Below, piece by piece: positions 55,687 through 56,029 of a stretch of DNA of 64,000 bases. The notes beneath the pieces were generated by a model, which had not been told where the DNA came from, did no database searches, and was given only the letters and a program-made list of their open reading frames with translations. Each line of letters starts with the position of its first letter. Position 1 is the stretch's first letter. Made by a program: the position numbers and the translations under genes. This DNA comes from a virus (taxonomy: Duplodnaviria; Heunggongvirae; Uroviricota; Caudoviricetes), in the IMG/VR virus record IMGVR_UViG_2724679539_000005, positions 12,292-76,291 of that record, one strand, 5' to 3'.

Positions 55687-55715
55687 AAAAAGCAACAAAA
55701 AAGTTGTAAAATATC

Positions 55716-55744
55716 TTGACATTTCATCTATTGTATGTTAATAT
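55716..55744 (+). promoter_or_regulatory. near-consensus sigma70 promoter (TTGACA-17 bp-TAATAT)
   Basis: TTGACA at 55716-55721, 17-bp spacer, TAATAT at 55739-55744; followed by hairpins (GGGGAG...CTCCCC at about 55812-55835; terminator-like AAGGCGGC..GCTGCCTT then T-run at about 55938-55970). Confidence 0.5.
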
Positions 55745-56029
55745 AATTATATAGGGGTGATTATTTTTCCTTTATTGGTTCGATATTAAAAATTCTTCCT
55801 GTCATTAAAGGGGAGTAAATCTCCGCTCCCCGCTTCTCCTCCTCCTTAAGTGTCATTATTACCTCTTTTTTCCTTTGTTATGCATACATCTTGGAGTATG
55901 CATAACATAGGGTAATTACATAGGTATGAGTTAATAAAAGGCGGCTTTAAATGCTGCCTTTTATTTTGCCCGTTATGCAACTTAAAAGTTGTATTTCTTA
56001 CTTTAAACAAGGTAACAAGGTTTATATAA

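Follow-up and report, generated by a model that had tools for sequence, protein, structure and literature searches.

Short RNAs that arise by termination ahead of prophage or satellite genes have been described in several systems. In Stx phages, the small RNA (sRNA) StxS is made because the constitutive promoter PR' terminates immediately downstream in lysogeny (PMC7547250). The IsrK unit of Gifsy-1 comprises a promoter, an sRNA and an intrinsic terminator, and partial read-through of the latter yields an mRNA for downstream prophage genes (PMC4825925). The satellite P4 similarly combines a constitutive promoter with an untranslated leader and premature termination, associated with the CI RNA (PMC4825925). 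This report deals with a unit of related layout found in a stretch of 64,000 nucleotides, hereafter the window, which covers positions 12,292 to 76,291 of the IMG/VR virus record IMGVR_UViG_2724679539_000005 (Caudoviricetes). There, an island integrated at the tRNA gene thrW carries a near-consensus sigma-70 promoter, a structured non-coding leader and an intrinsic terminator ahead of an operon for capsid and tail proteins that has no promoter of its own. As this layout is kept in about 90 relatives, the unit is a real control module, and it resembles a phage late-gene switch. Its regulatory logic is already known from lambdoid phages and P4; the leader RNA and the element are absent from Rfam and from the literature searched, which held no description of the element family or of its RNA.

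The region had been flagged in a first-pass annotation, made from the letters and a list of open reading frames (ORFs), as a near-consensus promoter followed by two hairpins ahead of a six-gene operon, and interpreted as a strong promoter gated by an attenuator or terminator, that is, as a switch controlled by antitermination or by a riboswitch. That observation is confirmed, and its extent is larger than first noted. The interpretation is supported in part: the gate is real and conserved, the riboswitch is unsupported, and regulated antitermination is plausible but unproven.

Promoter, leader RNA and terminator

The promoter (Table 1) pairs a -35 TTGACA with a TATAAT-like -10 hexamer within the 16-18 nt spacing expected of sigma-70 sites, and it carries an extended -10 TG at 55736-55737 that the first-pass annotation did not mention, while placing the hexamers correctly. 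With a score of 10/12, it is the best promoter-like site across 54500-57000 and the sole one to reach that value. Judging from the position of the -10 hexamer, the RNA is predicted to start near A55751 and would begin AUAGGGG; promoter activity and start site, like termination efficiency, are predictions from the sequence.

Folding of the 223 nt between predicted start and terminator gives -67 kcal/mol (z score -5.2), and the RNA contains no ORF conserved among relatives. The two hairpins noted at first are both real, but their count was incomplete, as there are four significant hairpins and these are part of a conserved structured RNA. Hairpin 1, recognized earlier as GGGGAG..CTCCCC, pairs 55810-15 with 55826-31 and is unchanged in 32 loci that share the leader sequence type of the window (type C, see below), with a nucleotide diversity (pi) of 0. 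Hairpin 2 is the strongest and had escaped notice. Its 12-bp stem (55876-87 with 55896-907) is perfect, and the single substitution seen among relatives, an A-to-G change beside the loop, gives a G-U pair. Between the two hairpins, the pyrimidine tract contains CCUCCUUA (55841-48), which is the sequence of the 16S rRNA 3' end (anti-Shine-Dalgarno).

The terminator-like AAGGCGGC/GCUGCCUU and T-run, also pointed out in the first pass, proved to be the core of a strong intrinsic terminator, in which a GC-rich hairpin (55933-55965; -17.4 kcal/mol, z score -5.6) directly precedes a U-run that reaches 55967. The built-in terminator scan omitted this site; its stem continues through A-U pairs into the T-run, and the omission is an artefact of the scan rule. 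A further hairpin, likewise overlooked at first, lies between the terminator and the ribosome-binding site, whose Shine-Dalgarno AAGG follows at 56017-20. The motif that forms it is present a second time upstream of the -35: the 16-nt pattern GCAACNNAAAAGTTGT (GCAAC-N6-GTTGT), which was defined after both sites had been seen, has only two sites in the 64-kb window against 0.01 expected, and these bracket the promoter-RNA-terminator unit. A YAAC-N6-GUUR hairpin is found at the post-terminator place in relatives with leader types A and E. The bracketing copies could act as paired operators or as RNA hairpins.

Beyond the terminator lie six co-oriented ORFs, as first described; the first two overlap, and 18 nt lie between the second and the capsid gene. 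The distance from the terminator to the first start codon is 61 nt in the window and 22-90 nt in the relatives, and no promoter-like site was found in this gap, either at 55969-56029 or in the relatives. Because there is no promoter between terminator and start codon, the operon can be expressed solely via read-through, and its gating by the terminator is well supported. The unit thus has the arrangement of a PR'-type switch, in which an intrinsic terminator stands at most a few hundred nt behind a constitutive promoter and the late genes beyond it have no promoter. No terminator was found between the upstream gene and the promoter, and therefore transcripts of the early operon should also meet the terminator at 55933-55968.

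Table 1. Positions in the window of the features of the unit, of its operon and of the carrier island
Feature	Position	Strand	Details
Sigma-70 promoter	55716-55744	+	TTGACA 55716-55721, 17-nt spacer, TAATAT 55739-55744
Predicted non-coding RNA (leader or sRNA), ~215 nt	55751-55968	+	Predicted start to terminator U-run
Hairpin 1	55810-55831	+	GGGGAG(U)/(G)CUCCCC; -13.1 kcal/mol, z -3.3
Pyrimidine tract	55832-55848	+	GCUUCUCCUCCUCCUUA; from the sequence
Hairpin 2	55872-55911	+	UGUUAUGCAUAC/GUAUGCAUAACA and closing CCU/AGG; -21 kcal/mol, z -6.6
Intrinsic terminator	55933-55968	+	A-tract, 13-bp stem, GGCGGC/GCUGCC core, 7-nt loop, tail UUUUAUUUU
Inverted-repeat motif, copy 1	55692-55707		GCAACAAAAAAGTTGT; ends 9 nt upstream of -35
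Post-terminator hairpin (inverted-repeat copy 2)	55977-55992	+	GCAACTTAAAAGTTGT; -7.6 kcal/mol, z -4.7
Six-gene operon lacking its own promoter	56030-60532	+	ORFs; PF03864, phrog_29, phrog_16051, PF21821
Gene order of the operon			70 aa, 122 aa, 345-aa lambda-gpE-like major capsid (PF03864), 65 aa, 608-aa tape-measure-like (phrog_16051), 237-aa Dit-like tail (PF21821)
Conserved ~130-aa protein (135 aa here)	54939-55346	+	Basic N-terminus MAKRKNN..; gene precedes the leader in all types
HTH_36 Rep-like (or helicase-like) gene	53801-54511		
Four iterons	52010-52172		TGGATGTAACGAGAGGTTACA, each with GTAACG-N3-CGTTAC; spacing 33-55 bp; upstream of Rep-like gene
Tyrosine integrase	60614-61978	-	Pfam match
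Host island, 13.2 kb, AT-rich, thrW-integrated	48840-62046		Direct repeats GTTCGACTCCTATTATCG, GTTTTACTCCTATTATCG

Conservation across relatives

A total of 107 related loci were fetched, and the promoter was scored in 92 and the terminator in 93 of them. The capsid family is restricted to Enterobacterales. Where a locus includes enough upstream DNA, 330-1000 nt of non-coding sequence almost always separate the early genes from the first small gene of the capsid operon. The leaders fall into at least six sequence types that cannot be aligned with one another; a type A nhmmer profile gave no match to the window leader, and blastn between types returned short motifs only. The window represents type C, the shortest, with a leader RNA of 215 nt as against 450-950 nt in the relatives. 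The architecture is common to all types: a near-consensus promoter just past the upstream gene is followed by an RNA start of the form A(U)(A)GGG(G), CCUCC pyrimidine tracts, GC-rich hairpins, the intrinsic terminator, a further small hairpin and the ribosome-binding site.

The promoter pattern, defined as a -35, 16-18 nt, TA...T, 3-11 nt and GGG, occurs at the expected place in 89 of the 92 loci, compared with 0.02 per 900 nt elsewhere in the same loci. These 89 promoters come from at least ten enterobacterial genera; their -35 is TTGACA in 64 cases and their -10 is TGn-extended. Since the spacers differ between types, it is the promoter signal that is conserved and not the sequence. Similarly, a canonical terminator ending 650-684 nt before the capsid start was found in 75 of the 93 loci and in none of the 78-93 loci scored in each of six control windows; in the other 18 the same hairpin departs from the canonical form by a long loop, a mismatch or a U-tract interrupted by C. 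At least seven unrelated stems are used (GGGGC/GCCCC, GGCGAC/GUCGCC, GGGCUAC/GUAGCCC, GCGGC/GCCGC, GCCGG/CCGGC, GCCGGAAG/CUUCCGGU and GGCGGC/GCUGCC). The earlier proposal of a strong promoter cut off from the operon by a genuine terminator is thereby upheld, both elements being kept across leader types that cannot be aligned.

Selection on the RNA itself is seen in type A. Its large central hairpin is 95.5% paired over 12 distinct sequences, and 10 of 11 pairs have changes on both sides, G-U pairs included. The covariation amounts to 0.93, compared with 0.37 in shuffles (0/500 reach it), and only 24-56% of positions are paired when the partners are slid by 1-3 columns. The use of G-U pairs indicates that this covariation acts on the plus-strand RNA and not on the DNA. 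RNAalifold on the whole type A alignment gave several further helices with multiple pair types, and two further type A hairpins have invariant stems, which carry no covariation information. Terminators with different stems are misaligned by MAFFT, and RNAalifold could not score those.

In type C, the stems of 29 distinct leaders are nearly free of substitutions, and length changes are confined to linkers, where they affect the number of TCC repeats or consist of a 10-nt insertion or a 17-nt deletion. The E. coli variants have CUCCUCC or CUCCUCCUCC, the insertion after UUAAG, and the deletion before the terminator. Among the 32 type C loci, intergenic pi is 0.024, whereas the flanking genes show 0.013-0.032 at codon positions 1+2 and 0.052-0.163 at third positions, so that the intergenic value is 2-7 times below that of third positions; for the RNA at 55751-55968, nucleotide diversity is 0.028. 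The type C leader is as constrained as codon positions 1+2. Across types, CCTCC is present in 59 of 71 distinct relative leader segments compared with 7 expected from composition, an enrichment of about 8-fold, and in type A the CCUCC motif sits in a hairpin loop.

One type B element, located beside a tRNA in JAEWTL010000083.1 (L007), comes from a record labelled 'MAG: Bacillota bacterium'. Its leader is 88% identical to that of the E. coli locus L002, and the record is probably a mis-binned enterobacterial contig.

Search for an agent of read-through

Rfam 15 was searched with the whole window at the gathering threshold, and with the region and the leaders of its relatives at E<=10; for the region and these leaders, only chance-level matches were returned. 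No mutually exclusive terminator/antiterminator pairing is conserved in folds or alignments, and an apparent competitor for a terminator arm in some type A leaders vanishes when the terminator stem changes. Candidate leader peptides are not maintained either, the frames of the small ORFs being broken by 3-, 10- and 17-nt indels among close relatives. In view of these three results, the terminator looks unconditional, which leaves the operon three routes to expression: a protein may bring about processive antitermination, an antiterminator RNA may act in cis, or read-through may simply be leaky.

The conserved protein encoded at 54939-55346 is a candidate regulator only. Its relatives, which are widespread in Klebsiella, have an N-terminus MGRKERN..RIE and a conserved core PRKRK..Y..DSS.L..WQ..GF. 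No match to the protein was found in Pfam, PHROG, NCBIfam or the PDB, and the confidence of its AF2 (AlphaFold2) model, with a predicted local distance difference test (pLDDT) score of 55, is too low for use.

A number of other possibilities were tried and discarded. A tRNA-like reading of the UUCGAAUC/GGUUCGAU loop motif found no support from ARAGORN, which returned nothing in the window and 10 relatives. Pairing of the leader as an anti-ribosome-binding-site element, in cis or in trans, with the ribosome-binding region of gene 1 was not above shuffles in the window (z score -0.8), and duplex energies with this region or with the post-terminator segment were significant only in a few type A relatives. 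A boxA/nut reading fell away, as the exact CGCUCUUA of type B forms the 3' arm and U-tract of an internal hairpin, and the best that the window offers is a 5/8 match. Mimicry of the adjacent prophage, by a cos site or otherwise, was set aside, as that prophage has no similarity to the leader region. A link to the iterons was also dropped, GTAACG-N3-CGTTAC being present only upstream of the Rep gene in types C and B and not at the leader.

Interpretation of the unit

The explanation that we favor, though with somewhat less than even confidence, is that the region is one conserved transcription unit that gates the morphogenetic (capsid/tail) operon via protein antitermination of the lambda PR'-tR' kind. 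The near-consensus and probably constitutive promoter would start an RNA at about 55751, and the nascent leader would fold into several stable hairpins. In the resting state, the polymerase would stop at 55933-55968 and yield only the ~215-nt non-coding RNA, and the six downstream genes would be expressed only upon read-through of the terminator. The most likely agent would be a processive antitermination factor that appears on helper phage infection or induction. It might be encoded by the helper, like lambda Q at PR'-tR', or be one of the small proteins of the element, and a helper-encoded Q acting in trans is possible. The short terminated RNA might be a by-product, or it might serve as an additional regulator like StxS in Stx phages.

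Several points weigh against this explanation. No element-encoded antiterminator of the sort that the first pass had suggested looking for is recognizable: searches of Pfam, PHROGs and NCBIfam with the upstream proteins (121, 135, 92, 236, and 73 aa) returned nothing resembling Q, N or another antiterminator, and those of 121 and 135 aa have no sequence match in the PDB. Nor did the same three databases reveal a Q-family gene immediately upstream of the promoter, its place in lambdoid phages. A Q-binding element or sigma-dependent pause signal is not identifiable from sequence; Q-binding sites are specific to each Q, and -10-like hexamers in the first 25 nt of the transcript are at chance expectation. 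The leaders cannot be aligned across types, so the cross-type argument is architectural. A repressor may act at the promoter, and the strengths of both promoter and termination are predicted ones. Finally, a conserved, structured RNA of 215-950 nt with loop motifs such as CCUCCU exceeds the needs of simple gating, and therefore points to a function of the RNA itself.

This last point is the basis of a somewhat unlikely alternative, in which the unit is a stand-alone gene for a functional non-coding RNA, trans-acting or protein-binding, whose terminator merely ends the gene while constitutive leaky read-through feeds the operon. The exposed CCUCCU could then block ribosome binding on helper or host mRNAs, or the RNA could titrate an RNA-binding protein. 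The length and structure of the RNA beyond gating needs, its z score, the covarying helix and the purifying selection argue for such a gene, and so do the enrichment of CCTCC, its loop position in type A and the identity of CCUCCUUA with the 16S rRNA 3' end in the window. Precedents exist in StxS (PMC7547250) and IsrK (PMC4825925), both sRNAs generated by termination ahead of prophage genes. However, pairing tests against the operon's own ribosome-binding region and the post-terminator segment found no target for the short RNA, the leader belongs to no Rfam family and shows no detectable sequence conservation between types, and the lack of an operon promoter is unexplained by a non-coding RNA gene alone. 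A more far-reaching and unlikely proposal is that the leader represents a new class of satellite-encoded structured regulatory RNA, either a helper sensor that licenses read-through or an RNA acting in trans via CCUCCU on helper or host translation, in an undescribed enterobacterial satellite family with its own capsid, tape-measure and distal-tail proteins. The structured RNA has also been weighed as a cis-acting antiterminator of the HK022 put type, which like the non-coding RNA gene is compatible with terminator gating. Transcripts from the unit's own promoter would then be terminator-resistant, the terminator would stop only those of the early operon, and control would lie at the promoter, for example via the GCAAC-N6-GTTGT sites. 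This would explain why a conserved structured RNA lies exactly between promoter and terminator in all types, why the upstream gene and the promoter have no terminator between them, and why a unique 16-nt inverted-repeat motif brackets the unit. We nevertheless regard it as decidedly unlikely, since the RNA has no similarity to known antiterminator RNA families in Rfam, the near-consensus promoter has no recognizable overlapping operator, and the paired motif was not found in leader types B and F; protein-free RNA antitermination, moreover, is known in a few phages only.

The remaining alternatives are less probable again. RNA immunity of the P4 type, in which a small RNA processed from the leader would pair with nascent transcripts and enforce premature termination until overridden, is quite improbable here. 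The layout does match that of P4, a satellite whose constitutive promoter reads into an untranslated leader and whose transcripts end prematurely (PMC4825925), and the arm UGCAUAAC (55900-07) finds its complement, GUUAUGCA, twice, at 55877-84 and, past the terminator, at 55973-80. An 8-mer repeat is, however, expected by chance in 350 nt, and the pairing between leader and post-terminator segment has a p value of 0.06 in the window and is non-significant in 8 of 9 other representatives. Moreover, the C4 model RF01695 has no match in 55500-56300 at E<=10, though it scores 74.8 bits at 20376-20461, and the terminator is strong, canonical and requires no helper RNA. A ligand, a tRNA or the translation of a leader peptide might instead toggle terminator and antiterminator folds; such a riboswitch or classical attenuator, offered by the first-pass annotation, is highly improbable. 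A long structured 5' leader that ends at an intrinsic terminator is indeed the standard riboswitch layout, but neither a riboswitch nor any other leader family was detected in Rfam even at E<=10, no segment competes with either terminator arm, the one apparent competitor of type A not being conserved, and the small ORFs are broken as described above. The leader sequences are also wholly different between types, unlike a ligand-binding aptamer. We attach just as little weight to a DNA-level site, that is, a cos/pac packaging site or a set of operators before the head genes, with the hairpins being incidental inverted repeats. It would suit the position between replication and head modules, like that of cos before Nu1 in lambda, the perfect inverted repeats with the bracketing 16-nt motif, and the high diversity of leader types, which could track different helpers. 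It does not account for a promoter and a terminator kept around a non-coding stretch or for covarying stems whose G-U pairs make sense only in plus-strand RNA, and neither the neighboring prophage nor any deposited phage has similarity to the region.

The carrier island and its surroundings

The edges of the island are copies of the 3' end of the tRNA-Thr gene thrW, at 48840-57 and 62029-46, and its GC content is 35-43%. The same element is found directly after tRNA-Thr thrW in E. coli O26:H11 11368, where the unit occupies about 327,530-327,860 of NC_013361. The DNA of the window is enterobacterial, and the region 55300-57700 is present in 385 of 5426 complete E. coli genomes (~7%). The gene order runs from the iterons through the HTH_36 Rep-like gene, several small genes, the non-coding unit and the capsid/tail operon to the integrase on the opposite strand. 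The iterons at 52010-52172 are likely to be the replication origin; they are also found in locus L002.

Deposited phages contain no DNA similar to the leader region, and the capsid reaches a best identity of only ~25% with any capsid in 50,697 deposited phage records. The genes recognized on the island are only the integrase, the HTH_36 gene and those for the gpE-like capsid, tape-measure-like and Dit-like proteins; portal, protease and terminase are lacking. Such a combination does not correspond to any described satellite family, as judged by the marker sets of P4-like elements (psu, sid, delta, alpha), PICI (alpA and pri-rep), cfPICI (capsid with portal, protease, adaptor, and terS) and PLE. 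The island nevertheless appears to resemble a phage satellite.

To the left of the island lies a lambdoid prophage bounded by an attachment-site (att) copy at 7061-78. With 7061-7078, 48847-48864 and 62029-62046, there are three copies of the att core, the thrW 3' end, which indicates a tandem array at thrW composed of something left of 7061, the lambdoid prophage and the 13-kb island. An integrase fragment is located at 62138-62398 on the minus strand. In the lambdoid prophage, Rfam identified isrK (RF01394; 20279-20351, 58.7 bits) and the C4 antisense RNA (RF01695; 20376-20461, 74.8 bits) side by side; together, at 20279-20461, they form a module of Gifsy/P1 type for anti-repressor control. 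The same prophage has a Q82-type antiterminator gene (23531-23923), a PR' promoter TTGCTG-17-TAATAT (23936-64) and a tR' terminator (24022-45), and between tR' and its lysis genes are a lipocalin gene on the opposite strand, a YbgA-family gene and a helix-turn-helix (HTH) gene.

Significance

If the favored reading holds, the unit would be the late-gene switch of a widespread and unstudied mobile element, with relatives in Klebsiella, Enterobacter, and Citrobacter, among other enterobacterial genera. It would offer a compact handle on how the element stays silent, how it detects a helper and whether it borrows the antitermination machinery of that helper, and it would add to known RNAs a conserved structured one that is missing from Rfam. 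An abundant, unannotated RNA of ~215 nt would then be expected beside thrW in enterobacterial transcriptomes. The leader might also prove to act as a sensor specific to satellites or as an RNA with functions in trans.

Comparison with known systems

Among the systems with which the unit can be compared, HK022 put is similar in that a structured RNA immediately follows the promoter and precedes terminators, a likeness of layout, as put has no Rfam model. It is ~70 nt long with two stem-loops, whereas the leader described here has at least four hairpins and a variable length. P4 immunity (CI RNA, seqA, seqC), which is related to the C4 RNA of P1/P7 (RF01695), shares with the unit its setting in a satellite or satellite-like element, the constitutive promoter (a probable one here), the untranslated leader and the premature termination, which would silence the downstream operon. 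In contrast to P4, the unit has no RF01695 match, its terminator is canonical and autonomous, its complementary repeats are not significant, and the genes kept silent are structural ones and not replication genes.

IsrK is likewise a promoter-sRNA-terminator unit, with short and long isoforms that have a common 5' end. Its model (RF01394) has no match in the leader region, however, and pairing between the short and the long RNA is not significant here. StxS provides the case of a by-product of antitermination control that gained a function of its own (PMC7547250). It differs from the leader in being 74 nt long and Hfq-bound, and the two have no relationship by sequence or Rfam; of the features of an Hfq-dependent sRNA, the leader shows the terminator with its U-tail.

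The lambda late switch, made up of PR', 6S RNA, tR' and Q, is arranged in the same way: from a strong sigma-70 promoter, constitutive there and probably constitutive here, a short non-coding RNA runs up to an intrinsic terminator, behind which lies a structural operon with no promoter of its own; in lambda this operon is activated by read-through, and the same may be true here. The island differs in having no recognized upstream Q gene, qut or pause element, and in having a leader that is longer (215-950 nt), structured and under selection. Its carrier is a 13-kb satellite-like island and not a phage, and its operon opens with head genes and not with lysis genes. A late switch of the lambda kind is nonetheless close at hand, since the neighboring prophage contains one at 23531-24045, so that the same logic is present immediately beside the island.

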